Of a stretch of DNA of 64,000 nt, positions 27,413 through 64,000 are shown in pieces. The stretch is from a virus, in the IMG/VR virus record IMGVR_UViG_3300050343_000150, positions 27,748 through 91,747 of that record; one strand, 5' to 3'. How positions within the stretch are numbered: position 1 is the first letter of the stretch; every line of letters begins with the position of its first letter. Both the position numbers and the translations under genes were made by a program. Under the pieces are notes generated by a model. That model worked only from the letters and a program-made list of their open reading frames with translations. It was not told the origin of the DNA and made no database searches.

Positions 27413-28264
27413 TTATAACCATCTCATTAAAGAAGTGGAAGGTGTTACTGGTGTTTTTGTTTTACTGGTTCTATTTTTACGTAGTTTAAGTACTCTCAGT
27501 TCAGTGACTGAAAGTGTGTTTTTACAGTAGTCCTGAAAATCAGGGCTTTTTAGTAAGTCTTTGAAAAGATATACTTGAGAAGGCCGCATTTTAAGCCTCC
27601 GCAAAATTCTCGGTAATCTAGAATACTCTTTTCTTTGTGGTGGTGTCATCTTTCTGTACATTCTACCATCGTGGGCATATGCTAACATCTCGTAGAAGTA
27701 TGTTTTATTCCATTTTCTTTTTACTTTAGCATCAATAAACATTAATTTGTTAGGGTGAATATTGGGTGCTAGCCAAGAGATAAATTGTATATCAGCAGGT
27801 TCTGAAATTTTCAACATGTCTGCAATAACATCTCTATTTGAATTACGAAGGTAGTCGCCTACCATGGTGAAAATATCTACTTCATAATTTTGAGGTTCAA
27901 CTGAACGTGGTGCGATTTCATTTATTTCGTCTCGTAATGATTTCTTGGTTGCTCTTTTTAGTTTACATAAATTGTATAACTTCTTAGGTACATCTTTTTG
28001 ATTCATAGAACACAAAACTGTTTGTCCTCTATATTGTAAGATGGTTTTTCTAATTAAGTCAATATTAGGTTTGTAATTACACTCTCTGATAATTATTCCA
28101 ACATCAGCAGGAATACTTAGGTTGTCTTCGATATCATATTCATTAGCATACACGATGATAGGAGTATCTGATGTGTATTCTTTTGCTTTAGTTATTTTAT
28201 CTGTGCCTTCTTTTCCTACTATTATTATTGCTCTATTTTTATTGTTCATTGTCAATAGACTCAT
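27413..28264 (-). CDS. Degenerate AAA+ protein, possible clamp-loader large subunit
   Basis: IIIVGKEGTDK degenerate Walker A; near rfcS; C-terminal 'SLMRWL' PIP-like end. Confidence 0.45.
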   Translation of the reverse strand: MSLLTMNNKNRAIIIVGKEGTDKITKAKEYTSDTPIIVYANEYDIEDNLSIPADVGIIIRECNYKPNIDLIRKTILQYRGQTVLCSMNQKDVPKKLYNLCKLKRATKKSLRDEINEIAPRSVEPQNYEVDIFTMVGDYLRNSNRDVIADMLKISEPADIQFISWLAPNIHPNKLMFIDAKVKRKWNKTYFYEMLAYAHDGRMYRKMTPPQRKEYSRLPRILRRLKMRPSQVYLFKDLLKSPDFQDYCKNTLSVTELRVLKLRKNRTSKTKTPVTPSTSLMRWL

Positions 28265-48539: not shown

Positions 48540-48821
48540 ATGAGTTGGGAAGACACCATTCGAAAGAAAGGCAGTCGTTCCGTTTCAAGTACTGCAATTG
48601 AGTATGTTGATTTTGTTATGTCAGATAATAAAACAAGAACAGTAAGAGAAGTTATAGAAGACTTATTCGAGATGAAAAAGGATAAAACGCATACTAATTT
48701 TAAGAATAAGATTCCAACTACAAGAGAATTAGAATATTATTTTCAAAATGATGCTAAATATGAACGAGTTGGACGAAATAAGTTCACGAATCAAATACAA
48801 TATCAAAAGGTGAATCAATGA
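48540..48821 (+). CDS. Hypothetical protein with SW tag (winged-helix-like)
   Basis: MSWEDTIRK. Confidence 0.65.
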   Translation: MSWEDTIRKKGSRSVSSTAIEYVDFVMSDNKTRTVREVIEDLFEMKKDKTHTNFKNKIPTTRELEYYFQNDAKYERVGRNKFTNQIQYQKVNQ

Positions 48822-48918
48822 AACCTTTTCATGGGGTTTGTGTTACTTGTGAATGGTTTAGACTAATTGAATATTCAAGTCAGGGTTGTTTCTGTTCTTA
48901 TTGTGGAGCGTATGTAGA

Positions 48919-49206
48919 ATGAAACAGTGGCTAATTAGAAAGTTGATTGCTTTCATGGGACAGTTTTATGTTTGGTTAGATAGGAAACTAGAACATCCAA
49001 AGGGAAAAATTCTAGAATTGGAGATAGATGAAGACCTTGATAATATGTCTAGGTATGATTTGTGTTGTCATATTGAAGAAATGTTTGGCTTAAACAGGGA
49101 TAGTTTTTGGAGATTAGAATCTACTCAAAAAATTAGGTATTGCGCACAGACTGCTAGGAATCTAAGAGCGAACCAAAAGAAAAGTCGAAAAAAGAAATCT
49201 TCATAG
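48919..49206 (+). CDS. Hypothetical protein
   Basis: MKQWLIRKL... start with GGAG upstream. Confidence 0.55.
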   Translation: MKQWLIRKLIAFMGQFYVWLDRKLEHPKGKILELEIDEDLDNMSRYDLCCHIEEMFGLNRDSFWRLESTQKIRYCAQTARNLRANQKKSRKKKSS

Positions 49207-49229
49207 AACTATACTCTCTCCGAAGTATC

Positions 49230-49556
49230 ATGTCGTGGTTCGATGTTGTTAAACGTGGTGGCGATTATGATTCATATATTATTGATTTAGCAATGGATAT
49301 AAATGAAGAATTAGGGCAACACATTGACACTTCTGAAGTAAGAGATAATGTAGAAGACGCTAGAATTTCGAGAGGATTAAGAACTATGTCTCCTGATGAA
49401 GTATTTGAAAAGTATCCTAAATTGAAAGCAGCATTGTTGGAAGCAATTAGAGATGAAATATCTAATGTAAGTATGTATGTACAAGACAGAAGGGAACAAA
49501 GGATGAATACTTCTTCTGAATATGATTCAAAGTTTGATAATAGGGACGAATATTAA
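49230..49556 (+). CDS. Hypothetical protein with SW tag
   Basis: MSWFDVVKR. Confidence 0.65.
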   Translation: MSWFDVVKRGGDYDSYIIDLAMDINEELGQHIDTSEVRDNVEDARISRGLRTMSPDEVFEKYPKLKAALLEAIRDEISNVSMYVQDRREQRMNTSSEYDSKFDNRDEY

Positions 49557-49557
49557 T

Positions 49558-49791
49558 ATGTGGAGAAAGACATTGAAATCAGTTGGTCAGTCTGATGCTG
49601 ATAAAATGAAAGATTTGTTTTCTGACATTACTGATGATTTAATATTAGTTAGAAGGGCTGTTATTGCAGGGAATAAAGATTTAGCAGCAGAGCAGTTAGG
49701 AACACTAATCAATTTTATGAAATCACAAGATATTGCTATTGATAGAATGATGGAATCTGCTTGGCAGCGTAGTCTGCGAGGCGAGACATAA
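49558..49791 (+). CDS. Hypothetical protein with tag variant
   Basis: MWRKTLKS; also ends SAWQRSLR. Confidence 0.55.
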   Translation: MWRKTLKSVGQSDADKMKDLFSDITDDLILVRRAVIAGNKDLAAEQLGTLINFMKSQDIAIDRMMESAWQRSLRGET

Positions 49792-49940
49792 TGTCGTTCA
49801 AATCTGTATTAGAAAGTTCAGCAGTTTCACATAGTGGAATTTGTAATGAGTGTGGTGTGTTTGTTAGAGAAGGACAGAAATGTAATAGTGTTCGGCTAAC
49901 AGAAAAAATCTTCTCTTGTCCTATGAATGGGGCAAGTTAA
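49791..49940 (+). CDS. Small Cys protein
   Basis: Hand-translated MSFKSVLE...CNECG...C...CP. Confidence 0.45.
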   Translation: MSFKSVLESSAVSHSGICNECGVFVREGQKCNSVRLTEKIFSCPMNGAS

Positions 49941-49983
49941 GAACAATGTTTATTGTGTCCAGTATATTGAGCGAGGTCAGGTT

Positions 49984-50154
49984 GTGTCATCAGAATCGAA
50001 ATCCGAATGGTTTAATTTACTGCGAATGGCTGGCGCAGTTACTACAACTTCCAGTCCCGCAATGTTCAATGTAAGTTATGGGAGGAAGAAAAAAGATGGC
50101 AAAAAAACCCGTAAAAAAAGGAATGACCGCCGTAAGATTATCCGGCAATACTAA
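49984..50154 (+). CDS. Small basic protein with tag variant
   Basis: GTG start; SEWFNLLR...AGAVTTT; Arg/Lys-rich tail. Confidence 0.5.
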   Translation: MSSESKSEWFNLLRMAGAVTTTSSPAMFNVSYGRKKKDGKKTRKKRNDRRKIIRQY

Positions 50155-51163
50155 GGCTATTGCTGATGGAGAAATTCCGGATTTTAAAACTGCGTTCAAG
50201 GAGTGGAAAACTAAGGCCAGCACTTACTCACTTAGTATGGGTAAGGGTGATATTACTATCTTACAGTTTATTGAGAATATGGGTAGGGTTGGCAGACATG
50301 CTCCGGAAAAAGATGGAGAACTTAGAGGAGCGCGTGCGCCTCCGCAGAAATTTATACAATTAGCCGAAGAGGTTAGTAAAGAAAAAGCCCTAACTGGTAG
50401 TCAGTTAGCAAAAATAAAACAACTACAAGCATATTTAACTGCAAATAAAAGTGATACTTCTAAAAATAATCCTGCTAATATTAAATTTAATGGTATTGCT
50501 GGATTTAGTTCTAAGGGTAAAATTACAAAAAAGCCAATGTACGGAGATTATCGTACAAAGCAATATGTTAGATATCGTAAGAAATTTAAAAACCAAACAG
50601 TCGAACCGGCAAAAGAACATTGGTATAACGAAAAACCCGGAACTGCACGTCCTCCTGTTTGGCAAGCACTGTTTGGTGAAGAAATTGAAGATTTTAAGTC
50701 TCCTAGTTTGTTGAAAATATCAACTGATTTGTTTAAGGCATTAGAAGGGCTAGATTTTGAGATAGACCCCAATGAACCGTATCGATTAACAGCATCAAAA
50801 GCACAAGGGACTGCTGAATTTTTGTATACTAATATTTCTGCTGTTAGGCAATTATTTGAAAAATTAGCAAAAGACCCGGCATTTTCTACCAATAAAGGAT
50901 TTAGGCAAGAAAAAGCACAGAATTTAATTAATGGTAAAAATACTGGTAAACCATTTCCGTTCATTATAAGTCCAGCAGAGTCTAAGGCATTTTTATCTGA
51001 AATTGGTGAAAAGGATAGCGCAATAGAATTAGATAAAATATATTTACATATTCCAAAAAGGCAATGTGGCTACTTAGCAGCAAAGGCTGGATATAAAGTT
51101 CCAGTACAAGAAACTCCCAAAATTGAAAAATCATGGAAAAAAATATTGGAGGTAGTAAGATGA
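50078..51163 (+). CDS. Basic hypothetical protein with C-terminal tag-like motif
   Basis: 361 aa; ends IEKSWKKILEVVR. Confidence 0.7.
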   Translation: MGGRKKMAKKPVKKGMTAVRLSGNTKAIADGEIPDFKTAFKEWKTKASTYSLSMGKGDITILQFIENMGRVGRHAPEKDGELRGARAPPQKFIQLAEEVSKEKALTGSQLAKIKQLQAYLTANKSDTSKNNPANIKFNGIAGFSSKGKITKKPMYGDYRTKQYVRYRKKFKNQTVEPAKEHWYNEKPGTARPPVWQALFGEEIEDFKSPSLLKISTDLFKALEGLDFEIDPNEPYRLTASKAQGTAEFLYTNISAVRQLFEKLAKDPAFSTNKGFRQEKAQNLINGKNTGKPFPFIISPAESKAFLSEIGEKDSAIELDKIYLHIPKRQCGYLAAKAGYKVPVQETPKIEKSWKKILEVVR

Positions 51164-51606
51164 ATTGGAAAAATAATTTAAGGAAGTCTGAGTTGAGAAA
51201 AATGGAATATAGTGTCAATTGGACAGGTATCAAGGTAGATTATTTAGACATAAAAAATAAACCTAAGGACTTGATAAATATGGAGGCTAACTTTGATACA
51301 GTAGAAGCAACAGCAGAAAAAGCAATCGTCAACGGAGAGTTTTCAGCCGACATTAGACGTAATGGAATTAAGGACATAGGTAGTTATGCTACTGATATTT
51401 CTCTACGAATAACCTTTGAAGATACTGAAACTGATTTATATGAGGAAATTGATATTGAAATTGACTCTGATATTACAGATGAAAATATAGAAGGTAGAGT
51501 CCAAATTAATCCTGCATATATTGAAGTCGAAATAGATATGAAGGGGCAAAAAGACCCCTCACAATTTAAAAAGACCGCTAGAATATGGTGGCAAGGAACT
51601 TATTAG
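51160..51606 (+). CDS. Acidic hypothetical protein with tag variant
   Basis: MNWKNNLRK; GGAGGT upstream. Confidence 0.65.
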   Translation: MNWKNNLRKSELRKMEYSVNWTGIKVDYLDIKNKPKDLINMEANFDTVEATAEKAIVNGEFSADIRRNGIKDIGSYATDISLRITFEDTETDLYEEIDIEIDSDITDENIEGRVQINPAYIEVEIDMKGQKDPSQFKKTARIWWQGTY

Positions 51607-51703
51607 GAAGTGAAAAAAATGAAATGTTGTAGAGGAATGAATAGTATAATAGATGAAGATAATTGGTCACAGACCATGTGTTGTTATTGTGGAGAGTATT
51701 AAG

Positions 51704-51952
51704 ATGAGTTGGGAAAAAATATTAAAATCGCAAATTGGAGATGGTGGTTTCATGTTTCATGTGACTGCTAAAGTTTTGACAGAAGATGAAGACGGAGAAG
51801 AAGTTGCTATGGACGAAAGAGAACTTCATACACTTGCTGAAAGTGTTTTACAGCAACTGCTCCGAGAAAGATTTTCTTCGGAGTTTGATAAAGATGATGG
51901 TACTACCTTTGAAGTAGATTGTGAAATAATCAGTGTAAGTGAAAACAGGTGA
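51704..51952 (+). CDS. Acidic hypothetical protein with SW tag
   Basis: MSWEKILKS. Confidence 0.65.
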   Translation: MSWEKILKSQIGDGGFMFHVTAKVLTEDEDGEEVAMDERELHTLAESVLQQLLRERFSSEFDKDDGTTFEVDCEIISVSENR

Positions 51953-52686
51953 GTGAGATGAGTTGGAAAAGCATTCTGAAAAAGGAAGTAGACACAAGCA
52001 CCTTTACTCGTTATGTAACTGAGGATAACTATACTCTAAACGATAAATTTGGAGATGCGGTTCGGGAAAAAATAAACGATGCATCTCTCTTGGAGATGAT
52101 GAACGAGAGTAATTTATTGCATAGCAGTATGCTTAAGATTACTAGAGATAATTTTAACGAAATATTTGACATACGACCTTATCTCAAAGACCTTTACAAT
52201 AAATTAAGCCGAGAGTTTACGAAAGAAGAAATAGCAGAAACAATGGAAGTTTCATTTTCTTTCTTAGACGAGTCTCCAAGTAACTCTATTGATAAAACGG
52301 AAGAAATAGACGAATACATAGTTAATTTTATGCATGAAAAAGCCAACCCGTTTGTGCGTAAAGCACTTCAACCTCGAACAAGAGGTATGATTTTCTCAGG
52401 CCCGTTACCTAAAGATGTTAAGAGCAAGGAAGAAGCAATTGAGAAATTGAATGATTATGCAGCAGAACTAGATGTAGGATATTATCCGAAATTAAATCAG
52501 GATGCCACTCTTGAACAATTCAAGAAATCACTAGGAGAAATGGAAGCATCCATAGAAGGTGAGGCTAGTGGTTTCCGTGGGTATTTCGATAATGGTGTTG
52601 TGTGGTATCACATATTGAGAGAGATTGAGGGCTTTAGAACCCTAGATAAACTATGGAGACCCAAAACATATAGATTCATTAACTAA
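51949..52686 (+). CDS. Hypothetical protein with SW tag
   Basis: MSWKSILKK at 51958. Confidence 0.65.
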   Translation: MSEMSWKSILKKEVDTSTFTRYVTEDNYTLNDKFGDAVREKINDASLLEMMNESNLLHSSMLKITRDNFNEIFDIRPYLKDLYNKLSREFTKEEIAETMEVSFSFLDESPSNSIDKTEEIDEYIVNFMHEKANPFVRKALQPRTRGMIFSGPLPKDVKSKEEAIEKLNDYAAELDVGYYPKLNQDATLEQFKKSLGEMEASIEGEASGFRGYFDNGVVWYHILREIEGFRTLDKLWRPKTYRFIN

Positions 52687-52862
52687 GTTAGCAAAGGAAG
52701 TCCGTGAGAGTTTGAGATATTGATGGAGTTCAAAGGTAAGTTAGTTCACAAGAGACAAGACACAATTATTGTTCATCAGATGCAAGTCATCAAGGAAGTG
52801 TTAGCACAAAATCACCCTGAAGTTTGGTTAGATGTTAGAAAACAAATGGAGAGTAAGTTACA

Positions 52863-54390
52863 ATGAGTTGGTATTCAAATTGATATAATGCTAAAAGCAA
52901 TCCAAGCCGCTAGAACTAAAGATATCACTAGAGAAAAAAGTCAAAGAATTGGAGATGCTAAGGCATCAATATCGAGAAATACTGAAGAATGGGAAAGTAG
53001 TCTCAAAACCTTAGGAGTAAAACTTGAAGATGTTATTGCGAGATTATCTAAAGTAGTCGCTACTAGAAATACACAAGAACGGCCCGCTTCTATAAAAAAT
53101 TGGAAAAAATTAGTTACTGATAAGAAATGGGAAGAATTACTTCAAATTCTATCAGATGAAAAAGTAAGAAGTAGATTTAGACAATTATTACGTCAGTCAA
53201 ATAATTCAGAAAGTAGTAATGCTCTATTCACTTCTGAAGATGAAAACGCTAAAAAAATAATTTCATTGCTATATCCTACAAAGGAAGCATTTCCATCAAT
53301 GGAACTTACTACCACAATAAGTAATGACAACGCAATAGAATATGTTCAATTCGTATTGAATAAAGTAAATGTTAATCATCGTATACCTTTCATTAGTATG
53401 AAGCAAGGAGATAATCAATCTATGCGTACTCTATTTATGGCAAAACCAAAGTTGAAGGGGCTGCAATATATATTAGAAAATGATGCCATAGATACTAGTA
53501 AATTATCTAAACCTATGCTCAGACAATCAGTAGGTAAACTTGGTCTAATAAATGATTTAATAAATGACTCTCAATCTGTTAAATCTTTAGACAACATACA
53601 AGCAGAATGGAAAAATTTCAAAGACTTCGTAAAGGAAATTAAAACTGAGGAAAGCGATAAAACTAGTAAGAAAGTTTTACCGTTAGTAAAAAGAAAACTT
53701 TTCTTTGGGGCTATTGATAAAAATTTACTTGCTAAAAATGAGTTGTTAATGTATTTTAAGGGAGAAGGAATTTCCGAACCGGACTATGATGAACTGATAG
53801 AACTGATGGAAGATGAAGCATGGGCAGATATAGATGACCTACTAAATTTAGGAGATTTAGATACCGATGAAGTAGAGGCCAAATTTACACAGGCAGTACA
53901 GGGAGCAATACGTAATATGGTTTTGACCCCGGATAAATATAGAATACCTAGAAGTGATGATGCTAAATCCCTTGAGTTTATTTTCGAGAACGAAATGGAA
54001 GATATTATGGATAGTTTAACTGAAGAATCATTAGATGAGTCTTCTTTTACTACATCTCAACAAACAACATTTAACGATGGTGTAGCAATAAGAAATGATA
54101 CTTCAGGATTTCCGGAAGTAGTTAGAGTGTTAGAGATTCTAGGAGAATTATTTTCTGCCGGAGAAGATACTATTTCTACCTTTGATTACATAGAAGGAGA
54201 AATAACCCGTGAAAAGTTTATGGCACAAGTCCAAAAAGAATTTTCAGAAATTAAAAAAGACTTCTTAGCCAATGTTAAAGAAAATATGAAAGTTGTAATG
54301 AGCCAAGGTAAAAGAATTAACAAGGCTAATATTAAGAAAGAAAATGAACCATACATCTTTATTTATAAAATGTTTAATTTAGGAGGTTAA
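52863..54390 (+). CDS. Large helical hypothetical protein (possible internal virion protein); probable frameshift in first 25 nt
   Basis: ATGAGTTGG at 52863 is out of frame with the 500-aa ORF from 52888. Confidence 0.65.
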
Positions 54391-54394
54391 TATT

Positions 54395-56899
54395 ATGAGT
54401 GAACGATTTGATAAGTTTATGTTCGAAGGTATGCGAGGGCTAAAATCTGACTTAGAGGCAGAAGGAGTGAAAGAAATTAGTGCTGAAGCAAGAAAAATAA
54501 AAAATGGATTTGCAGATAATTCATTATTCGATTTTCTTTCTGTAAATGATATTTCTGATAAAGTAGTAAATGCTAAAGACGAGGCTAATGATTCTACATT
54601 ATTACTACGCAGTCCTGAAGGAAAAGTTACATTACAAAATTATGCTATGGCTTTAGGGGGAGCAAGAGCGCAAGAAAAGTTCAGAAACAAATTAATTGCA
54701 AGATATAGAAATTTCAAAAATCTATCTAGTATGCAGCAAATAGGTATGTTGAATTATGTATACCGAGAAACTAAAACATCTGAAATGGGTTCTAGAGAAG
54801 AAGGTAAACTTTCAGACGCTAACGTATTAGATGAAGAATTACTAGCAGCACTTTCTAAATTTAAATATACTAAAAATAATCTATCAGTTGGTGGAGAGGC
54901 AATAAGTAAACCAATTAAAAATTTCTCTAAGGAAATTATGTTTGATGGTTCGAAGATGCCTCGCAATGAAAAAGAAGATATGTATAGTCTTTTATTAGGT
55001 CAACCATTTGAAATTAAATCTAAACTCAAGCCTTTTATTGACAGGTTAAAAAACGAATTAGGTGATTTGAGTGAACAGCCTATTTCGGTAGAAAAAATAA
55101 GTGCTGGTTCTCTTTTAGGTAAATATGATTTAAAATTACTAAAACGTAGAGAAGCAATATACGATTATTGGGAAGAAATAGGAACAACAAAATGGGCAGA
55201 ATTTAGAAAAACTCATGTTGAATTTGTTGCGGCTATGAAGAAATTAATAAGTGGTAGTAAAAATAATGATTTCATTAGAGAAGTACAATCTCTTATTGAT
55301 ATAGAAGTAGATACTCTACAATATGTAATGCAGTATGAAGCAAAGAATTTACCGGCTGATAGTCCATTAGTTAACAGTGTTAAGTTGTTTGAATTATTTG
55401 TAGAAGAAAATAAAGATAATGAAAATTTAATTTATCAAGAAGGAGGATATAGAACCTCAAACGAAAAGGGTGGAGGCCAAGTAGGTGAACTTGACTATGA
55501 TTCTGTTGAAGATGGGGATATTGAAGAAAAACTTTCTAGTATATTAGAAGACTTAGATGAAGGTCTAGAAAATGCAGCAGACCCTCTTTTACATTATGCT
55601 TACGAATTGGGAGCAGTAGGACTTAAGGGTAAACCTGTTTTACTTTCTGAGATTAAAAAAATTAAACTTATGTTGAGAAATACTCTAGTCGTGATAGATG
55701 CTGAAGGATTAGAAGATACACTAAATGAGTTATTAGATAATATAGAAAACATGGCTATTGATAGTTCTAGGAAAACATTTTACTTACCATATCAAAAAGA
55801 ATTATATGGAGAAATTCCTTATGGGCCAATGAATGACTCTAGTAATTTATTCAACGCTTCTAATGTAGAACAAACTAAAAAATATCTAAGATTACTTTCT
55901 GAGTTTATTGATGTAGGTAATGACTTTGACCGTGGGGCAACAGGAGGAAGCAGCAACAAATACAAGTTCCCTGCTAGAGAAGGTGGACGTGGCGGTTCAC
56001 GAATGAAAGATTTTTCAGAGTTAAAGATGGAAGAGAAGTTTACTAAGTATTTATCTGCTGTTATGGAATATTTTGTTATTCCTGCTAGAAGTAGATTTAG
56101 ACCTTTGAAATCTTCATTGCCACACATAGTGCCACGTGATATCAATATTCTAGGTAAAGAAACACCTGCTAGTCAAAATGCTTTTATTCATTTGTTGCGC
56201 ATGGAATTTTCTACGGATGAAGGTATTATACTAAATAAAACTCAACTTACTCAAATTAATAGATTACTTGATACTCTGACTAGACCAGCAGTATCGAATA
56301 GATTAAGAGAATTTATTGGTGAAGTCCGTTCCTTTGCAATTATGATTAGTAATGTATATGACAACACAGTTACCAATGAAGTCAATATGGAAATGGGGGC
56401 TTTCTTACATGATGTATTAGAGAAGAATGGTATTGCTCCGCAAAAATTTGGTATCGGTAATGAAAAGATGACAAATGAATGGAATGCTGAGTATGAAGAA
56501 AATAAATCTAGAGTATTACCCTTCGAAGGTATATATGACCATATTAGATACAGGGAGTCTTCGTATCGTGCAGCAAATTTAGCAACCGAAATTAAAACAT
56601 TGATTCGTTTAGAAAGTAAATTGGACATAACTAAATCTCAAGAAGAATCTATAATATTACAAGCACATGATGAGATTCGTAAAATGTTAGGTAAACCAGT
56701 ATATTATGGGTTAGGAAAAGTAGATAGTTACGATAATGTTTCTGACACTTTGAACTTAATGAAGAGTATGTTTTCTGTGGATTTAACTGCTATGGAGTTA
56801 GAAAATATTGTAAATGATTTTGACTCTATGCAAAATCTTAGTACTAAACATGGTGTTTCAAAAGAAGGAATTTATTTCTTAAAGGCTAATTTTAGGTGA
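54395..56899 (+). CDS. Large hypothetical protein (834 aa), possible internal virion protein
   Basis: Long ORF with GGAGG upstream, in head module. Confidence 0.75.
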   Translation: MSERFDKFMFEGMRGLKSDLEAEGVKEISAEARKIKNGFADNSLFDFLSVNDISDKVVNAKDEANDSTLLLRSPEGKVTLQNYAMALGGARAQEKFRNKLIARYRNFKNLSSMQQIGMLNYVYRETKTSEMGSREEGKLSDANVLDEELLAALSKFKYTKNNLSVGGEAISKPIKNFSKEIMFDGSKMPRNEKEDMYSLLLGQPFEIKSKLKPFIDRLKNELGDLSEQPISVEKISAGSLLGKYDLKLLKRREAIYDYWEEIGTTKWAEFRKTHVEFVAAMKKLISGSKNNDFIREVQSLIDIEVDTLQYVMQYEAKNLPADSPLVNSVKLFELFVEENKDNENLIYQEGGYRTSNEKGGGQVGELDYDSVEDGDIEEKLSSILEDLDEGLENAADPLLHYAYELGAVGLKGKPVLLSEIKKIKLMLRNTLVVIDAEGLEDTLNELLDNIENMAIDSSRKTFYLPYQKELYGEIPYGPMNDSSNLFNASNVEQTKKYLRLLSEFIDVGNDFDRGATGGSSNKYKFPAREGGRGGSRMKDFSELKMEEKFTKYLSAVMEYFVIPARSRFRPLKSSLPHIVPRDINILGKETPASQNAFIHLLRMEFSTDEGIILNKTQLTQINRLLDTLTRPAVSNRLREFIGEVRSFAIMISNVYDNTVTNEVNMEMGAFLHDVLEKNGIAPQKFGIGNEKMTNEWNAEYEENKSRVLPFEGIYDHIRYRESSYRAANLATEIKTLIRLESKLDITKSQEESIILQAHDEIRKMLGKPVYYGLGKVDSYDNVSDTLNLMKSMFSVDLTAMELENIVNDFDSMQNLSTKHGVSKEGIYFLKANFR

Positions 56900-57420
56900 T
56901 ATATATGGTTGAAGTTCCCGATAAAATATACTCTGAGAAAGAGATGTTAAATTTATGGAATTCAAATAATCCCGATGACCAAAAATTACCTAGAAAACAA
57001 AGACCAACCTTAAAAACTACATTAACTACTACTAACCCTGAATATTTTATTGCTCTGTCAAAAAACAAACCTGTTGGTTATGCAGGTTTTGAGGACAATG
57101 GTTCTTTTTACGCTACTGCCGGAATTTATACCACTCCAAAAGAAAGAGGTAGTGGAGTTTCGTATTTGTTAAATCAAAGAAGATTAAGAATATTAAGACA
57201 GAAGCCATCGATTGCTTCTGTTAATATTAGTACATTTTCAAAAAATAAATGGATTAAACATTGGGAAGACCAAGGGTGGAAATTTAATTTAGAAGATGTA
57301 GAAGTACCTAGTGAGATTCCTATGGGTGTGTATCAAAAAGAAATCAAAGCCTACGGTAGGCAAAATGTAGGAGTATTAGATAATAGACTTGCTAAGTGGC
57401 AACAACAATTGAGGAGATAA
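56896..57420 (+). CDS. GNAT-family acetyltransferase
   Basis: VGYAG...GIYTTPKERGSG motif A; ends KWQQQLRR. Confidence 0.65.
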   Translation: MIYMVEVPDKIYSEKEMLNLWNSNNPDDQKLPRKQRPTLKTTLTTTNPEYFIALSKNKPVGYAGFEDNGSFYATAGIYTTPKERGSGVSYLLNQRRLRILRQKPSIASVNISTFSKNKWIKHWEDQGWKFNLEDVEVPSEIPMGVYQKEIKAYGRQNVGVLDNRLAKWQQQLRR

Positions 57421-57421
57421 A

Positions 57422-58862
57422 TTGGAAATAGATAATCTAGATTTTGTTTCACAAATGGATATGGAATTATCTAAAACTTCTTTTCCATATTTTTTTAAAA
57501 ATGTTCTTAGGTATGATGTACCCGAATATATGCAAGAATGGTTAGAATCAATGGAAACTACTGATAGAACAGTTATTATTTGTAGTCGTGACCACGGTAA
57601 ATCTGTCTTTATGCATAGTTGGGTAGTATGGAATCTTAATATTTCAAGAACCACCATTTCAAATGTTATACATTTCTTCTAACCAAAAGCAGACTTTAGT
57701 TCACATGAGAGAAATTGATAGATATTTTAATCATCCAGCACTTAAACAGTTCAAACCTAGTAGGGGTTGGGCTATTGGTAACATTCAATTAACAAATGGT
57801 AACGCAATTTTAGAACGTTCTGTTGGTTCTCAGATTAGAGGACTTCACCCTCAAGAGATTATTATTGACGACCCTTTGAAAGAGTTTAGTCTAGCAGGTA
57901 TTCAGAAGAGTTACTGATTGGTTCTTTGGAGATATGATACCAACACTTCATCACACTTCTAAGTTGAGAATGATTGGTACACCGTTTACCTATACTGATA
58001 TATTTTGCACAATTAGAAGAAAATGAGTGCATATACTGTTAAAAAATATCCTTGTCTTAATGCAATGAATGAACCACTTTGGCCTGAACGTTGGGACTTA
58101 TGATGCACTTATGCAAAGAAAGGCTGAAATAGGTTCTCTTAAGTTTACAAGAGAATATCTTTGTGTTCCTATCTCTACTGGAACTGCATTATTTAATCCT
58201 GAGTTTATTGCTGAAATGTAAAAATAAAGACTATGTTTTGAAATTAGGACATAGAAAGGATAAGGGATACAAATATTATGTTGGAGTTGACCCTGCTATC
58301 TCAACTGATGGAGACTACAATGTAATTACTGTTTTAGAAGTGATGATGAGAAAAAACAAAACTATTGTTCATGTTGATAGAGCTAAAAATGTTGAGTTTA
58401 GAGAAAATATTGATAAGATTAGTTTGATAGGTAAAATATTTGAGCCTGAAGAAATACTATACGAAACTAATACTTTCGCTAAAGCATTCACTCAAGAACT
58501 AAGGAATATTTCAGATTTGAACGTTAGAGATTTTAATACTACTAGAAAAAGAAACAGGAAATAATTCTTGAATTTACAAATGAATATAGAAAATGGAAAA
58601 ATAACTTTCCCATATGGTGATAATCTAGTAGAAATTAACCAATACGCTTTAATTGAAGAATTGTCAATGTTTTCTATTACTCATATTCAGGAAATTTGAA
58701 GGTGTAGGCGCACACGATGACTTAGTAATGAGTTTAGCATTGGCCAACGCTTGCGCTACAAAAACACAAGATGTGTTCATGTTATTAGATGATATGGGAA
58801 TTTTGATAAGTCCTAAGCCTACGAATAGGTCTTTAGGCGGTATGCTGGGGCTGAACTTCTAG
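57422..58862 (+). CDS. terL: Terminase large subunit (multiple frameshifts)
   Basis: SRDHGKS Walker A, IRG, IIIDD Walker B, IGTP, VGVDPA nuclease motif, HDDLVMS. Confidence 0.9.
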
Positions 58863-58869
58863 GGTATAT

Positions 58870-60228
58870 GCGTGGCGTGAAAAGGGTGACAAATTAAGAG
58901 ATGCTTGCAGACCTTGAACCAAGACGGAAGAACATCTGAAGAAAGAAAAAAGTATCACTGAAGATATGAAAAGAGTTGGTTATCCAACCTATTTCAGACC
59001 ATACAATTAGAAAAAAGATTCGCAGAAGATTTTAGGTTAACACTTTCAGATGCTAAGAAAACTAAAATATGAACTTAAAAAATATGAGATAGAAGGTAAA
59101 GATATACCTAAGATATTAAAGAACTAAAAAAGTTTAGAAGAACTCTGAAAGGAGAAGAAAAAATTAGCAGATTACAAAATCGATTGATAATTTAATCAAA
59201 GCATATTCAACTCATTTAGATACTAGTATGGATTCTATTTATTGGTTAAGAAATATAAACCTGTTCTAAAAGATATGACTTGCACTGAAGATAACCTAAT
59301 TAAATTATCATATGTTAATGATGAAGTTACTAGAAGAGAAATTGTGATACTTTGTAAATATTGGGAAGCGAGATAGAGAAGGATGGTATGCCATTCAACT
59401 CAGAGTATTCAAAATTAACTAAAACAGATGACAATTCTAAAGAGAGTTCAAGAGAATAGTTAAAGAAACATATGAAAACTTAACTCAAAAGAATTATCAA
59501 ACACCACATAACAAGTTAGTTAGTGAAGAGTCAGGGAATATCTGCTAGACAAATACACGAAAGATTACCTAAGATAACTATTCAAGAAAACAACTCCTAG
59601 TATAATTTCTAAAATGGCTAAACAAAGTAACATTACTAATGTTGAAGGTTCTTTCTATAAGTTCAGTGATGAAATTAAAAAAGGATATTTATGCTTATAC
59701 TGCGGCTTTCATAGATTCTGATGGATACATTACTATGGATAAAAATATAATCCTAGAGTTGGTTTAGTTGCAACGGGTGACAGAGGAAAGCATTCATGAT
59801 AGAAATGCATAAATCTCTAGGATGTGGGAGACTACATTTAGACCAAAAATCTCCACAAGACACTAAACCAATGTCAATAGATTAAACTTTTATTCTAGAA
59901 ATGATGTTGGAGAATATTAACAAATGCTTACCACATTTTAGAATGAAAGGGAAAAATGCAGAAATATTGTTAGAGTTACTTAAGAATGAAAAAATCATAA
60001 AAAAGCAAATTGGTACAAGGCACGTAAGGAAAACTGAACTTTAAATTAATGAAATATGAAAATCATAAAGACCATAAGAACTATGATTTCGCAAAGTATG
60101 AGATTGACATAGATAGTGTTGTAAAATATTATGATAATGATAAAAATTCTACTATGGATAAATTAGAAGAAGTTTTGAAGGATAACGAAGTGGTCGATGT
60201 TATCCACAAGATGGAGGAGGAAGAGTAG
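58870..60228 (+). CDS. LAGLIDADG-domain protein between terminase and portal (heavily frameshifted; limits approximate)
   Basis: YAYTAAFIDSDGYI at 59690-59731, PRVGLVATG, preceded by HTH-like 'ISARQIHERL'. Confidence 0.6.
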
Positions 60229-60229
60229 T

Positions 60230-61888
60230 ATGGTAGAAAAGAAGCCAACGTTGTTTCAGAGATTAACTCGAAGAACGACCCCTAAGCCCCAAGACAGAAA
60301 CATTTACAATCCGGGTATTCAAGAAAAAGCCCCGTCAAATATTATAACTGCTCCAATAATATATCACGTTACTTACCAATCTGTAATTGTACGTACTTGT
60401 ATTACTCAATTGAAAAATGAAATATTTAGGCGTGGGTATACATGGGAAGAAAAGTTTGTAGTCAAGTGTACAGATTGTGGAAGAGAACACAAAACTCCTA
60501 CTACTGCCTGTATTGATTGTGGTAGTACTAACTTAGTCAAGCCTAATCGTGACCAATTAAAATACATACATAAATTATTAGATGGTTATGTAAACAAAGG
60601 TGAACAATTATTTATTGATGTGCTAAAAGAGTTAGAAGATGACTTGAATATAATGGACGATGCATACTTATGATTATGGTTAAGGAATACTTTGTTGATG
60701 GATAATGGAGACATACGAATGCATCGTATTAAGGAAGTATATCAGAGGCGACCCTGTTTCTATGCATATTTATGCTGATGAAAATAGGAGAAAGAGGACA
60801 TCAAGGATTTACATGTTTGAATCATAGAGATTTTATTAGTACAGAAATTTCTGATACTTGTGGCATGTGTGGTTCTGAACTTATATCCTGTACATTATGT
60901 AAATAGAGTAAATGGAGACTGAACAGTATTTCTTAGATGGAGAAGTATTACATTTCAGTAAATATTCACCTTCTAGATTATATGGACAATCCCCAATTAT
61001 GACAATGTGGAATCAGATTACTACATTGCTAATTGCTATGGAAAATTATGTTAATTCTTCCTACACTAAGGCAAGAATGCCAAGAGGATTATTGGCAGTA
61101 CAAACAAGAAATATGGAATCTATGAAATCTTTTTGGAGAGGCGTCAAAGAAAAGATGGAGCAAGACCCACACTTTATTCCTGTTATGGGAATAGAAGGTG
61201 AAGGCGGTAAAGGAGGAGTTGAGTGGATTAAGTTCATGGATAGCCTAAAAGAAATGGACTATATTTCTGTTAAAGATGATTTAAGAGATAGGATTTCTGG
61301 ATTTCTATGGAGTTAGTAAAGTTTTCATGGCTGACAGTTCTGCTAGTGGTGGATTAAATAACGAAGGTATGCAAATACTTGTTACTAATAGAGCAGTAGA
61401 AATGGCGCAAACTATTTGGAATAATTATGTGTTTCCATTTATGACTAAGGAATTTGGGATTACAGATTGGGAGTTAAAGTTGCCTCCTTCAGAAGAAGAA
61501 GATGAAATTGCAGTTCTTCGTAAAAGAGAGATAGAAGTTAATATTGCAGCAGTCAATTAAAAATTTAGGATTTGAAGTAAATATGGATGACGAAGGTAGA
61601 TTTTCATATACTAAACCTGAGCCAAAAATGGAAGGTGGTGAAGGTGGTGCAAGCCAAGGTGGAGATAAAGTAGAACTTGACCCTTATGCTGGAACAGATA
61701 TAGATGCAAGTCAAATGGGACAAATGCAAGAACAGATGATGATGGGTGGTAGTAAACCACAAGAAAATCCACCTGCAACTAGAAACAAACCATCAATGTC
61801 TACTGGACCTGATAAGAGATTTACTGGATTACCAGCAGATGCTGGAAATCAAAATGTTGACAAGCGTACTGAAAGGAGAGTAGGTTAA
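60230..61888 (+). CDS. Portal protein (frameshifted) with Zn-ribbon insertions
   Basis: EVLHF.KYSPS..YGQSPI and P.GLL portal motifs; CTDC...CIDCG insert; follows terL. Confidence 0.8.
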
Positions 61889-62088
61889 TGAGTTGGTTTG
61901 ACGTTATTAAGAGAAAGAAATCAACAGTTAACCAAGCGGGTAATTATACTAAGCCCGGTATGAGAAAGAGGATATTCCAACGAATAAAAGCAGGAAGCAA
62001 AGGCGGTAGAAAAGGTCAATGGTCTGCAAGAAAAGCACAGTTACTTGCTGCAAGATACAAGAAAGCAGGTGGTGGGTATCGTGATTAA
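61888..62088 (+). CDS. Basic protein (DUF5872-like, N-half) with SW tag
   Basis: MSWFDVIKR...YTKP..R.RI...IKAGSKGG..GQWSARKAQLLA..YK.AGGGY. Confidence 0.7.
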   Translation: MSWFDVIKRKKSTVNQAGNYTKPGMRKRIFQRIKAGSKGGRKGQWSARKAQLLAARYKKAGGGYRD

Positions 62089-62344
62089 TTGGTTTGACTT
62101 GATTAAAAAGAAAAATTTACAACCCTCACAACAGTCTATGGTAGAATGGAAAGATGAAGATTGGGTAGATATGGGAGGAAAAGGAAAGAAAGGAAGATAT
62201 GCTCCTAGAGCAGTTGCTGAGTCATTAACTCCCAAACAAAGAGCCGCAGAGAACAGAAAGAAAAGAGCAGGTAGAAAGAAAGGCAAGCAACATGTTCCTA
62301 GAACAAAAGCAGGAAAAAAAGTCTACCAAAGAATAGAGGGCTGA
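62081..62344 (+). CDS. Basic protein (DUF5872-like, C-half) with tag
   Basis: GTG start MINWFDLIKK...Q.S..EW..EDW...RY.P.....LTP.Q..A.NRKKR.G..KGKQ.V. Confidence 0.65.
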   Translation: MINWFDLIKKKNLQPSQQSMVEWKDEDWVDMGGKGKKGRYAPRAVAESLTPKQRAAENRKKRAGRKKGKQHVPRTKAGKKVYQRIEG

Positions 62345-62350
62345 AAGATT

Positions 62351-62605
62351 ATGAGTTGGGAAGAAGTTTTGAAAAAGAAAAAACCTAACAAGGGTAAAAG
62401 ATTTGTCTCTCCAAAAGGAACTTCTTATGGTCAGGCTGGTAAAGCGAAAGATGGCGGAGATAGAATTAGACCCGGTACAAGTAAAGGTGATGCTTATTGT
62501 GCAAGGTCAAATAAGATAAAAGGGGATTGGAGAAAAGACCCTGATAGTCCTAATAATCTAAGTCGTAGAAAATGGAAATGTCACGGGAATAAGTCTAGCA
62601 AATAG
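62351..62605 (+). CDS. Basic protein (YCARS...WKC family) with SW tag
   Basis: MSWEEVLKK...AYCARS...SRRKWKC. Confidence 0.7.
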   Translation: MSWEEVLKKKKPNKGKRFVSPKGTSYGQAGKAKDGGDRIRPGTSKGDAYCARSNKIKGDWRKDPDSPNNLSRRKWKCHGNKSSK

Positions 62606-62678
62606 ATAAAATTGTGGAAAGGCTCATCAACTACATTATATGTCGAAGTAATTGTTAAACAGTAGGGGGGGAGACAAT

Positions 62679-62840
62679 ATGAGTTGGAAAAAACTACTAA
62701 AAAACCGTGATGATTGTTTGTGTTGGAGAACAAAGTCAGAAAGAGAAATGATGATGGATGACGATGGTAATTGTAAGCATTGCGGTAGAAAAATACCGGG
62801 AATGGAAAAAGCAATCGAATGGGGGTACAGGGGTAAATAA
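62679..62840 (+). CDS. Small Zn-binding protein with SW tag
   Basis: MSWKKLLKN..CLC...CKHCG. Confidence 0.55.
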   Translation: MSWKKLLKNRDDCLCWRTKSEREMMMDDDGNCKHCGRKIPGMEKAIEWGYRGK

Positions 62841-62841
62841 T

Positions 62842-63066
62842 ATGAGTGAAAAAAGTGTAAGAGAATTAGAAAGACAACTAGCAGATGCAAGAGCAGAACA
62901 ATATGCTCATTATAGTAGAAAGGAAACAAAATCAAGAGATTATTCTGTTGGGGGAGTAGACCCACAAACTACTGTGGAGAAAAAAATACCTAAGGCTTCT
63001 GAAATACCGGATGCAATCTTGTTACCTAAAGCAAGAAAAAATAGAAAAGAAAATATTCCATTTTAG
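62842..63066 (+). CDS. Hypothetical protein
   Basis: MSEKSVRELERQL... Confidence 0.6.
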   Translation: MSEKSVRELERQLADARAEQYAHYSRKETKSRDYSVGGVDPQTTVEKKIPKASEIPDAILLPKARKNRKENIPF

Positions 63067-63936
63067 GTGAGTTACATGGACGATTCTTTTTTTGAGATTT
63101 TAAAAAAAAAGAAAAAGGAATCTACGATTAGTAGTGTAGCCGATACATTATTTGGTGGTAAAAAACCTAGTGCTGCTATGATGGAAGCAACCCACGGAAT
63201 TAAAATTGAAGATACAAAAACTAGCACTAAAAATGTAGAAAAGGAGTTAGAAGAATTATTAGAAATTTTTTCTAAGACCAAAGACATTAATGATAATAGT
63301 GTTAGAGAAAAATTGGTGTTAACTCAAGACTTAATATTCAAGCCTAAGAACGTAGTAAATCGTATTCTTGCGGGTTTAGAAAATATAAATAGAATGCCCT
63401 CCGCATTCAAGTTAATTTTCTATGAACAAAACCGTGATGGAAGTGCTAGTGAAACATTTAGGAGATACAACAATTTAGACAGTGATGATATCTTTAGAGA
63501 ATTATTAGATACATTACCAAATACCAGTAGAACTCGTAGTACACTATCTGAATTAAAATACCGCAGAGCAGTTTCTGCTTTCAAAAATTCCTTAAATGCG
63601 GTAGGTAAAGTTACATTGAGAGGTTCTAGACTGTCTGACTTAGAAAAATTTAGTCAATTAACGCTTAGTCTTTCAGATTGGATGGAAGTTGAAGACGAAG
63701 AAGAATTAGAAAATATCGGAGATATCTACGAAACTCTAGGAGATGATGCATTCGAAAGAGATAGTGTAGGGCAATTATCAGAAGCATTAGATATGGTTGA
63801 AAATATGTGGAAAAATGCAACTCCTGAAATAAGGGTAAAATTTAGAAAAATGTTAACTAATGCAGACATAATTAATCATGGTTTCCCTGTACAAAATGGG
63901 AAAAGAAGAAAAATTAATTTAACAGAAGAGATTTAG
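63067..63936 (+). CDS. Hypothetical protein with tag variant
   Basis: MDDSFFEILKK. Confidence 0.65.
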   Translation: MSYMDDSFFEILKKKKKESTISSVADTLFGGKKPSAAMMEATHGIKIEDTKTSTKNVEKELEELLEIFSKTKDINDNSVREKLVLTQDLIFKPKNVVNRILAGLENINRMPSAFKLIFYEQNRDGSASETFRRYNNLDSDDIFRELLDTLPNTSRTRSTLSELKYRRAVSAFKNSLNAVGKVTLRGSRLSDLEKFSQLTLSLSDWMEVEDEEELENIGDIYETLGDDAFERDSVGQLSEALDMVENMWKNATPEIRVKFRKMLTNADIINHGFPVQNGKRRKINLTEEI

Positions 63937-63962
63937 ACTAGGTAGTAGTGGGAGATAGTAGT

Positions 63963-64000
63963 ATGGCGTGGCAGGAAATATTGAAAGCGTCAAATTTTCT
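63963..64000 (+). CDS. Start of another tagged protein (runs off window)
   Basis: MAWQEILKASNF; GGAG upstream. Confidence 0.5.
   Translation, partial: MAWQEILKASNF

Follow-up and report, generated by a model that had tools for sequence, protein, structure and literature searches.

The DNA examined here comes from a 91.7-kb magrovirus genome (IMG/VR record IMGVR_UViG_3300050343_000150), of which a 64,000-nt stretch, positions 27,748–91,747, constitutes the window analysed. Magroviruses infect archaea and rank with the most abundant viruses in surface seawater; most of their genes have no known function, and to our knowledge no member of their host group has been grown in culture. Between 48.5 and 64 kb of the window, 10–12 ORFs begin with an eight-residue peptide of the consensus M-S-W-x-[D/E/N]-[I/V]-[L/I/V]-K, called the tag below, and one protein has a copy at its C terminus. 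The features of this region, in window coordinates, are as follows.

48540–48821, + strand: N-tagged ORF, 93 aa, no homologue in 80 related loci
49230–49556, + strand: N-tagged ORF, 108 aa, acidic, orphan
49558–49791, + strand: N-tagged ORF (M-W variant), 77 aa, orphan
49984–50154, + strand: small basic ORF with a GTG start, tag at residues 8–14
50078–51163, + strand: 361-aa protein of a conserved family, C-terminal tag at about 51131–51160
51160–51606, + strand: 148-aa ORF with a degenerate N-terminal tag
51704–51952, + strand: N-tagged ORF, 82 aa, acidic, orphan
51958–52686, + strand: N-tagged ORF, 242 aa, orphan
52863–54390, + strand: large protein, M-S-W start ended by a stop after 6 codons
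54395–56899, + strand: 834-aa conserved core protein, never tagged
56896–57420, + strand: GNAT acetyltransferase with a weak, degenerate C-terminal copy
57422–58862, + strand: untagged large terminase; errors of this record introduce frameshifts that split it
58870–60228, + strand: homing-endonuclease-like gene, untagged, frameshifted here, 456 aa in a close relative
60197–61888, + strand: portal protein, untagged, frameshifted here
61888–62088, + strand: N-tagged very basic protein, 66 aa, phrog_17747
62078–62344, + strand: N-tagged basic protein with a GTG start, phrog_14910
62351–62605, + strand: N-tagged basic protein, 84 aa
62679–62840, + strand: N-tagged small Cys-rich protein, orphan
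63076–63936, + strand: 286-aa protein with an F-for-W tag variant near its start
63963–64000, + strand: start of a 108-aa all-helical core protein, truncated at the contig end

The original prediction had placed N-terminal tags at 48540, 49230, 49558, 51704, 51958, 61888, 62351, 62679 and 63963, and these are present as described. Its remaining assignments stand in part. The tag listed at 62081 is genuine, with the true start being a GTG at 62078, 12 nt after a GGTGGTGGG ribosome-binding site, and the protein reads M-I-N-W. The internal tag of the 49984 ORF is likewise genuine, and orthologues in relatives keep it ahead of the same conserved core. The copy at 51160 is degenerate, with N in place of the first hydrophobic residue; in relatives, the homologous proteins come closer to the consensus, yet deviate from it at the Lys place. 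The ORF listed at 63067, which has the F-for-W variant, probably starts at the ATG at 63076. An M-S-W is indeed encoded at 52863, but the reading is M-S-W-Y-S-N-stop, and a 500-aa ORF starts 25 nt on, at 52888; 10 of 15 homologues of this protein are N-tagged, and these are roughly 620 aa long. The two proposed C-terminal copies also differ in quality: a strict copy is present in 22 of 28 homologues of the 361-aa protein, whereas the GNAT copy has Gln in a hydrophobic place and is strict in 13 of 54 family members. The terminase and portal genes, broken in this record, are intact in relatives.

A six-frame scan with the pattern W-x-x-[ILVMT]-[ILVM]-[KR] yields 12 + strand matches in this region, the first at 48546 and the last at 63969; nine of them read M-[S/A]-W exactly at an ATG. 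In the rest of the genome (76 kb), the same scan gives scattered matches, most of them in short junk frames and none at starts. Our comparison set comprised 80 related head modules (roughly 1.4 Mb) with 1565 same-strand ORFs, of which 399 are tagged at the N terminus, 47 at the C terminus and two at both. The chance test was limited to ORFs of at least 60 aa from these loci and took the internal rate as the expectation. It gave 376 N-terminal copies versus 1.2 expected and 46 C-terminal copies versus 2.4 expected, counts that come from related genomes and are not independent events. This excess bears out the claim that an SWxx(I/L/V)(L/I/V)K-type peptide is common to unrelated head-module proteins. 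Furthermore, M-x-W-x-x-h-h-[K/R] occurs 464 times on the coding strand and twice on the opposite strand of the related modules (1.42 Mb).

Within the tag, W is invariant, although this is set by the search pattern itself. The Lys place is K in 347 cases and R in 18, an acidic residue is favoured at position 5, and no residue is conserved beyond position 9 in the related head modules. C-terminal copies are followed by just 0–5 residues after the Lys. Both CTN and TTR codons are used for Leu, both AAA and AAG for Lys, and ATH for Ile, with variable third positions; the Ser codon is mostly AGT. The tag is conserved at the protein level, as had been proposed from the varied codons. We saw no co-variation of tag variants with lineage.

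Enrichment by genome module had been suggested as a test of the tag. In this genome, as in five complete relatives, the pattern keeps to the head-morphogenesis module. In the relatives, 45 of 50 matches lie within about 14 kb of the terminase gene and on its strand, and a reversed-pattern control gives none. No copy in the present genome heads a capsid-shell, neck, tail or replication gene. Across the 80 related modules, the terminase, portal, ligase and large core proteins, including the 834-aa protein, have no tags. The tagged genes share one operon-like block with the terminase, portal and protease genes, and in the window two GNAT genes flank the tagged block.

The proteins behind the tag are highly diverse. 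Tagged ORFs of the related modules fall into about 190 sequence clusters, including 117 singletons, and six window proteins have no homologue in the 80 related loci. Three window proteins have bacteriophage homologues that lack the tag: Pelagibacter phage homologues for the genes at 61888 and 62078, and a Vibrio phage homologue for the gene at 62351. Among the best 120 matches to phrog_17747, 79 carry the tag and a poly-Lys linker before the same core and 41 do not. Tag-like starts number two in 0.82 Mb from 80 other marine viral loci that carry a phrog_17747 gene, versus 435 in 1.39 Mb of magrovirus head modules. The untagged bacteriophage homologues of the small basic proteins indicate that the tag is an add-on, and its presence at either terminus and on about 190 unrelated families agrees with the portability that had been claimed for it. 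In 43 relatives, homology to the window ends right after the ATGAGTTGG of any tagged gene that follows a conserved core gene, which places cassette borders at the tag. Some bacteriophage phrog_17747 members have other amphipathic N-terminal extensions; at the one locus with such a form (L085), no neighbouring gene shares the extension, and lineage-specific tags in other viruses are not supported so far.

A near-copy of the tag is found on two core head proteins. The S78 prohead protease (Pfam PF04586, Peptidase_S78, HK97 type; PHROG head maturation protease) and a conserved helical protein of 75–79 aa encoded just upstream of it, which we call scaffold-like, both end in M-[S/D]-W-x-[D/E]-I-[H/R]-K. 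The motif lies in the last 12–16 residues of all complete S78 proteases examined, including those of the distant G005 lineage and of this genome, where the tail is encoded at genome positions 3454–3501. The scaffold-like protein has the same tail here and in lineages both close and distant; among 40 sequences, M and W are invariant and I is nearly so. This protein is homologous to the protease tail (alignment score 82 versus 35 ± 5.5 for shuffled sequences; Z about 8.6 and 3.8), and the tail common to the protease and its scaffold-like paralogue is new for the magrovirus lineage. Tail and tag have six of eight positions in common, and an N-tag profile finds its best site in any untagged family at the tail, with 17.4 bits versus 18.1 for the 5th percentile of true tags. 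The Lys of the tail is often replaced by Asn, Ser or Glu. One core place also differs, being H or R in the tail and L, I or V in the tag, and tail and tag could for this reason bind different sites. The likeness could also reflect a common protease site or a partner other than the shell.

AlphaFold2 predicts the tag as a short helix of residues 3–9 and the tail as a terminal helix after a disordered linker; the scaffold-like protein is predicted to consist of a helix, a disordered linker and a helix. Beyond the tag, the tagged proteins have little in common. Their median pI is 6.4, they are not uniformly basic, and their pI distribution resembles that of untagged ORFs. Pfam returned nine weak single matches and no theme for 149 tagged representatives; because it recognizes almost none of the tagged proteins, an effector role for them is a guess. 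Pfam and PHROGs together assigned, among the tagged and core proteins of the window, only GNAT, portal, protease, ligase and three PHROGs of unknown function, and a PDB sequence search with the three small basic proteins gave no match. For the 361-aa C-tagged protein, the ESM Atlas gave a low-confidence model and no usable match. The 108-aa core protein at 63963 is tagged in almost every relative; a Foldseek search of the PDB found no match for it, and its scaffold-like look remains a guess. We found no mention of the tag in the magrovirus literature searched.

Since the tag copies the tail of the virus's own head protease and scaffold-like protein, it is most likely a capsid address label. 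Judged from these sequence comparisons, the tag probably acts as a docking peptide through which hypervariable cargo enters the procapsid, much as with the T4 capsid-targeting sequence and protease or scaffold tails. A short amphipathic helix, tied to its own protein by a flexible and mostly charged linker, would dock a large and fast-changing set of accessory proteins onto the inner side of the assembling procapsid, at the site used by the S78 protease and scaffold-like tail. The cargo would be enclosed ahead of DNA packaging and would reach the next host cell along with the genome. Binding of tail and tag to the capsid protein or core is inferred, as are the presence of the cargo in virions and its ejection. 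The original prediction of an effector tag for capsid loading is supported in its portability, its confinement to the head module and its link to the capsid through the near-copy; the payload would be candidate effectors. A load of 15–20 cargo species per genome, some of 600 aa, is heavy for a capsid that holds 92 kb of DNA, which counts against packaging.

It is rather unlikely that the tag instead docks to a common partner outside the capsid interior (such as the portal, a chaperone of the virus or host, or an assembly platform in the cytoplasm or on a membrane), with accessory proteins, protease and scaffold-like protein gathered in one place and the accessory ones left unenclosed. The sequence facts do reveal a common peptide and not a receptor, and an amphipathic peptide with following lysines resembles short membrane-targeting helices. 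However, the W (with the limit given above), the preference for K over R and the acidic position 5 point to a specific protein pocket rather than a lipid surface. The two tail-sharing proteins are, moreover, classic procapsid-interior residents, and the sharing of one operon-like block with terminase, portal and protease also argues against such a partner. We consider it improbable that the tag is above all a processing signal, at which the S78 prohead protease or a host protease would mature, activate or destroy tagged proteins on schedule, the tail of the protease and scaffold-like protein being their own self-processing site. The strong Lys preference would suit a cleavage site, proteins such as the two bearing the near-copy are cut during maturation in other viruses, and T4 targeting sequences end in a protease cut site (PMC7411985). 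Yet no residue is conserved behind the Lys, and a cleavage site alone leaves the chain-end placement and the flexible linker unexplained. Cleavage after the Lys, which had been envisaged originally, would alter almost nothing at the C-terminal copies and would leave them attached, because those tags end the chain.

The Lys preference, together with the GNAT genes flanking the tagged block, would also fit a modification site for a putative virus-encoded ubiquitin-like system (E1, JAB and Ubl) or for the head-module GNAT acetyltransferases. This is very improbable, as the amphipathic W-x-x-h-h pattern and the likeness to a tail that often lacks the Lys fit docking better. Finally, the shared start might be a by-product of gene entry, through recombination at a conserved start or a DNA translation signal, and have no function in the protein. 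The cassette borders at the tag and the prevalence of AGT for Ser are what such a process might leave, but synonymous positions vary freely, C-terminal copies occur too and are conserved within families, the motif is kept while the remaining protein diverges past recognition, and it matches the C-terminal peptide of two core proteins. This reading is already disfavoured, and we give it almost no weight.

The preferred reading, a docking peptide for capsid cargo, has several precedents. Encapsidation tails of proteases and scaffolds include the HK97 gp4 tail, those of lambda C and Nu3, and the single capsid-binding C terminus of herpesvirus UL26 and UL26.5; in both HK97 and SPN3US, targeting of the prohead protease by a C-terminal tail was reportedly described by Duda et al. 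in 2013 (as cited in PMC7411985). The magrovirus protease and scaffold-like protein similarly have one C-terminal peptide behind a coiled coil and flexible linker. Unlike in those systems, the small protein is encoded by a separate paralogous gene and not by a nested reading frame, and many unrelated accessory proteins bear a copy of the tail motif that differs by one core substitution and usually sits at the N terminus. We know of no description of such copying for the HK97, lambda or herpesvirus systems.

The internal proteins of T4 are highly diverse and have only the capsid-targeting sequence in common, which loads them into the prohead for delivery with the DNA (PMC3012670, PMC7411985). 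As with T4 IPI–III and Alt, a short terminal peptide is the sole common element of diverse, polymorphic magrovirus proteins, and the candidate cargo genes are hypervariable as in T-even phages. The magrovirus peptide has another sequence, however; the protease is of the HK97-type S78 family where T4 has gp21, a cut site like the (L/I)-x-E of T4 is missing behind the tag, and C termini are tagged as well. About a quarter of head-module ORFs (some 190 families in 80 loci) have the tag, compared with a handful in T4. The magrovirus host is an archaeon, and packaging is a prediction there. Two sources (PMC10960027, PMC11664910) describe encapsulin cargo peptides as short, borne on a flexible linker at either terminus and able to bring unrelated cargo to the inner surface of an HK97-fold shell. 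Short length, a flexible linker and placement at either end of unrelated proteins are features that the magrovirus tag has in common with them. In contrast, encapsulins are cellular compartments that have no portal, terminase or genome, whereas the magrovirus has a terminase and portal, and encapsulins usually load one or a few cargo types encoded beside the shell gene. By general knowledge, the consensus peptides of encapsulin cargo are unlike the magrovirus tag. As a tentative and quite possibly incorrect extension, a true virus may use encapsulin-like cargo loading, in which an uncleaved copy of the protease and scaffold tail, working at either end of a protein, addresses any new gene that lands behind or before it. 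On this view, every virion would enter its host, one of the most abundant archaea in the ocean, with an arsenal particular to its strain, and hundreds of protein families would supply these arsenals.

The readable label puts about a quarter of head-module genes into one class, candidate virion cargo, and offers a simple rule for finding such genes in metagenomes. If its role is correctly understood, the tag would give archaeal viruses their first proposed capsid-targeting signal. It would also bring together three subjects usually treated apart: the tails of scaffolds and proteases, targeting sequences of the T4 type and the cargo peptides of encapsulins. A label of eight residues, usable at either protein terminus, would serve as a practical means of filling HK97-fold shells with proteins.

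Some minor observations concern other data collections. One metatranscriptome library contains short contigs over parts of the window, including 62378–62580 with one mismatch, which is no proof of transcription. A terminase search of a protein collection returned, among the matches listed, only near relatives with more than 80% identity, and among host-genome contigs the terminase was found only in a MAG labelled Maricaulis, which is evidently mis-binned.

Many unrelated head-module proteins of this magrovirus carry at one end the peptide M-S-W-x-[D/E/N]-[I/V]-[L/I/V]-K (hereafter the tag), which is portable, restricted to one genome module and attached to cargo that turns over between viruses. 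It also resembles M-[S/D]-W-x-[D/E]-I-[H/R]-K (hereafter the tail), the C-terminal peptide common to the S78 prohead protease and a small scaffold-like protein. Magroviruses infect marine group II archaea, and three features of the present genome agree with their published description (PMC5434244): its size, a second ATP-dependent ligase within the structural module and, between terminase and portal, a homing-endonuclease-like gene. The window is the final 64 kb of one 91,747-bp viral contig, with the following features.

Features of the window and of the source genome
Window 14-42 kb, minus strand: archaeal-type replication module
Window 42 kb to window end, plus strand: head-morphogenesis block
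Window 51160: degenerate tag copy
Window 52657-52871: 3′ remnant of a conserved 218-aa Zn-ribbon core gene, 5′ part missing
Window 63076: tag variant with F for W
Genome, first 27.7 kb, outside the window: remaining virion genes (protease, capsid protein, neck, tail)
Genome 3454-3501, outside the window: the protease/scaffold-like tail peptide

Scanning all six frames for W-x-x-[ILVMT]-[ILVM]-[KR] yields 12 plus-strand matches between 48.5 and 64 kb, nine of which read M-[S/A]-W from an ATG, and nothing comparable to this cluster in the remaining 76 kb of the genome. The clustering described in the original prediction is therefore borne out, and two copies that seemed to lack a start (62078 and 49984) begin with GTG behind a GGnGG ribosome-binding site. 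In the large gene at 52863 a stop truncates the M-S-W start, and most homologues have the tag. The IMG/VR contig L003, 95% identical, extends 1.75 kb beyond the window end and then continues into the genome start, implying a circularly permuted or nearly complete genome. These 1.75 kb (L003:9657-11407), absent between the end and start of our genome, hold two further tagged genes immediately past the contig end, together with the gene of the 76-aa scaffold-like protein and a 73-aa core gene.

At least 256 terminase relatives are present in IMG/VR, from which 80 loci of at most 21 kb each (1.42 Mb in total) were sampled. The pattern M-x-W-x-x-h-h-[K/R] occurs 464 times on the coding strand of these loci versus twice on the opposite strand. 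Among ORFs from a simple heuristic caller, 399 of 1565 on the same strand are N-tagged, 47 are C-tagged (2 of these carry both), versus 0 of 160 on the opposite strand, although related loci are not independent samples. For ORFs of at least 60 aa, N-terminal tags number 376 versus 1.2 expected from the internal motif rate, and C-terminal tags 46 versus 2.4. The latter are kept within families: 22 of 29 members of the 361-aa family, 7 of 7 in the 228-aa family and 13 of 54 GNATs. The logo reads M1, S2 (63%), W3 (required by the search pattern), [F/E/Q/K]4, [D/N/E/S]5, [I/V]6, [L/I/V]7 and K8, with 347 K versus 18 R at the last position and no conserved residue from position 9 on in the 80 loci. 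A GGnGG box lies at -12 to -8 before tagged starts. Conservation is at the protein level, as originally proposed, since tag residues are kept while synonymous codons vary freely across copies.

The tag is confined to the head-morphogenesis module. In five complete relatives (94-103 kb), 45 of 50 pattern matches are on the terminase strand and no more than about 14 kb away from the terminase, with circular wrap-around allowed for, and a reversed-pattern control gives no match. Equal frequency in non-structural genes, the distribution that would speak against a packaging tag, was thus not what we found. None of the source genome's capsid-shell, neck, tail or replication genes begins with the tag. 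It is also absent throughout from the terminase, the endonuclease-like gene, the portal, the structural ligase, the 834-900-aa protein and three small core proteins. Near the N-terminus of the head-module ligase (about 840 aa; for example L079:17409-19925, and at the genome start in this record), residues ~40-47 form a conserved tag-like W-K-x-T-V-K helix, present in many relatives and absent from the lineage of the distant genome G005, which could be an internal tag copy or chance.

Proteins bearing the tag have little else in common. With the tag masked, BLASTP clustering (E < 1e-6, alignment covering at least 60% of the longer protein) gives about 190 clusters, 117 of them singletons, in keeping with the earlier remark that the rest of each protein is unrelated. 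Pfam recognizes almost nothing in 149 tagged representatives, and six tagged window proteins have no homologue in the 80 related loci. Three tagged window proteins belong to small basic families widespread in marine bacteriophages; homologues in Pelagibacter phage HTVC103P and Vibrio phage 1.079.O show the conserved core from the start, without a tag. For the 66-aa basic protein at 61888-62088, the best 120 matches in a collection of 5.8 billion proteins comprise 79 with the tag and 41 without, and the tagged matches place a poly-Lys linker of variable length between tag and common core. Eighty other marine viral loci with this protein's gene contain 2 tag-like starts in 0.82 Mb, versus 435 in magrovirus head modules totalling 1.39 Mb. 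Because phage homologues are untagged, the clusters are so many and other loci are tag-poor, the tag is, on these sequence comparisons, an add-on gained by unrelated genes and not the remnant of one ancestral protein.

Several neighbouring observations concern the same proteins. The 410-aa protein L027:1921, the protein P0063 and cluster members with the motif at residue 104 of 350 have the tag at both ends or at a module junction, for example a small basic module, then the tag, then a phrog_17747 core. Non-magrovirus homologues of 61888-62088 (P0077, P0087, P0091 and P0104) bear different amphipathic extensions at the N-terminus, again with the poly-Lys linker behind them, a hint that other viruses may use separate address peptides; one short contig examined (L085) has no second gene with the alternative extension. 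The adjacent tagged basic genes of 61888-62344 find no support as a split DUF5872 protein, since neither matches this Pfam family at E < 0.01 and the pelagiphage genes are already separate, with one gene between them (HTVC103P gp57 and gp55). DUF5872 weakly matches another tagged magrovirus protein (L046:5578-5970).

The tagged gene following the conserved Zn-ribbon core gene differs from virus to virus among 43 relatives, and in these DNA homology to the stretch at 52657-52871 ends directly behind ATGAGTTGG of the next tagged gene. Judging from these alignments, cassette exchange seems to occur at the tag, and borders at its first codons probably explain how it spreads.

A possible source of the tag is suggested by the protease. 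In relatives, the S78 prohead protease (346-403 aa) combines its protease domain with a long coiled coil, after which come a short linker rich in Pro and, inside the last 12-16 residues, the conserved peptide M-[S/D]-W-x-[D/E]-I-H-[K/N]. A 75-79-aa core protein, encoded just upstream of the ligase, protease and capsid protein genes, repeats this layout in miniature with the same kind of ending, in which M and W never vary and I hardly does (40 sequences). Aligned with the protease encoded by its own genome, it matches the final 60 residues over its full length with a score of 82, versus 35 ± 5.5 for shuffles. The tail is retained in the distant L004/G005 lineage, where the homologue of the 834-aa protein is only 24% identical. 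Searching with an N-terminal tag profile, we found the tail to be the top site among all untagged families (17.4 bits; the 5th percentile of true tags is 18.1). Tag and tail have six of eight positions in common; at one hydrophobic position the tail has H/R where the tag has L/I/V. AlphaFold2 predicts a short helix for the tag, at low confidence, and a terminal helix behind a disordered linker for the tail. The relation between the two magrovirus proteins resembles that of lambda C/Nu3 and herpesvirus UL26/UL26.5, in which a capsid-binding C-terminus is common to protease and scaffold.

Protease and scaffold are canonical residents of the procapsid interior, and Duda et al. (2013) reportedly described a terminal peptide that holds the protease there. 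In HK97, SPN3US and herpesviruses, terminal peptides keep protease and scaffold inside the procapsid (PMC7411985), and T-even phages have diverse, polymorphic internal proteins with only a capsid-targeting sequence in common (PMC3012670). By analogy, the magrovirus pattern fits a protease/scaffold docking tail combined with T-even targeting logic, which would place the tag among terminal capsid-targeting peptides, an already known kind; the magrovirus literature searched makes no mention of such a motif. According to this model, the docking helix would have been copied onto accessory proteins, which would bind shell or core and become enclosed in the procapsid, and the enclosed cargo would be present in virions and delivered with the DNA.

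Other explanations are less probable. The tag may dock at a site other than the capsid interior, which we regard as unlikely. A pure processing signal is more doubtful still; the cleavage after Lys envisaged in the original prediction finds no support, because nothing is conserved behind the Lys and C-terminal copies would stay tagged. That the Lys is a modification site appears very improbable. A by-product of DNA-level events or gene birth would agree with cassette borders that coincide with the first codons of the tag, but synonymous codons vary, C-terminal copies exist and the tag matches the protease/scaffold-like tail, which together make this the hardest reading to credit.

The record itself contains errors. 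Relative to L003, window 57500-61560 has about 100 small indels in the terminase, endonuclease-like gene and portal, mostly single-base and outside homopolymers, with clean flanks. Because extra bases at 57502, 57635, 57905, 58002, 58028, 58213, 60036, 60667 and 60744 are absent from contigs of three independent public DNA runs, the frameshifts in these three genes are errors of the record, probably from poor polishing of genes common to many strains. Similar breaks appear in Pol B, the protease and the capsid gene. Two magrovirus contigs with this terminase (NZMJ01000101.1 and NZMJ01000061.1) sit in a MAG assigned to Maricaulis sp. and were almost certainly binned there by mistake. In the distant relative L004, an HMG-CoA-lyase/pyruvate-carboxyltransferase-like gene (L004:13489-14373) lies between the endonuclease-like gene and the portal.
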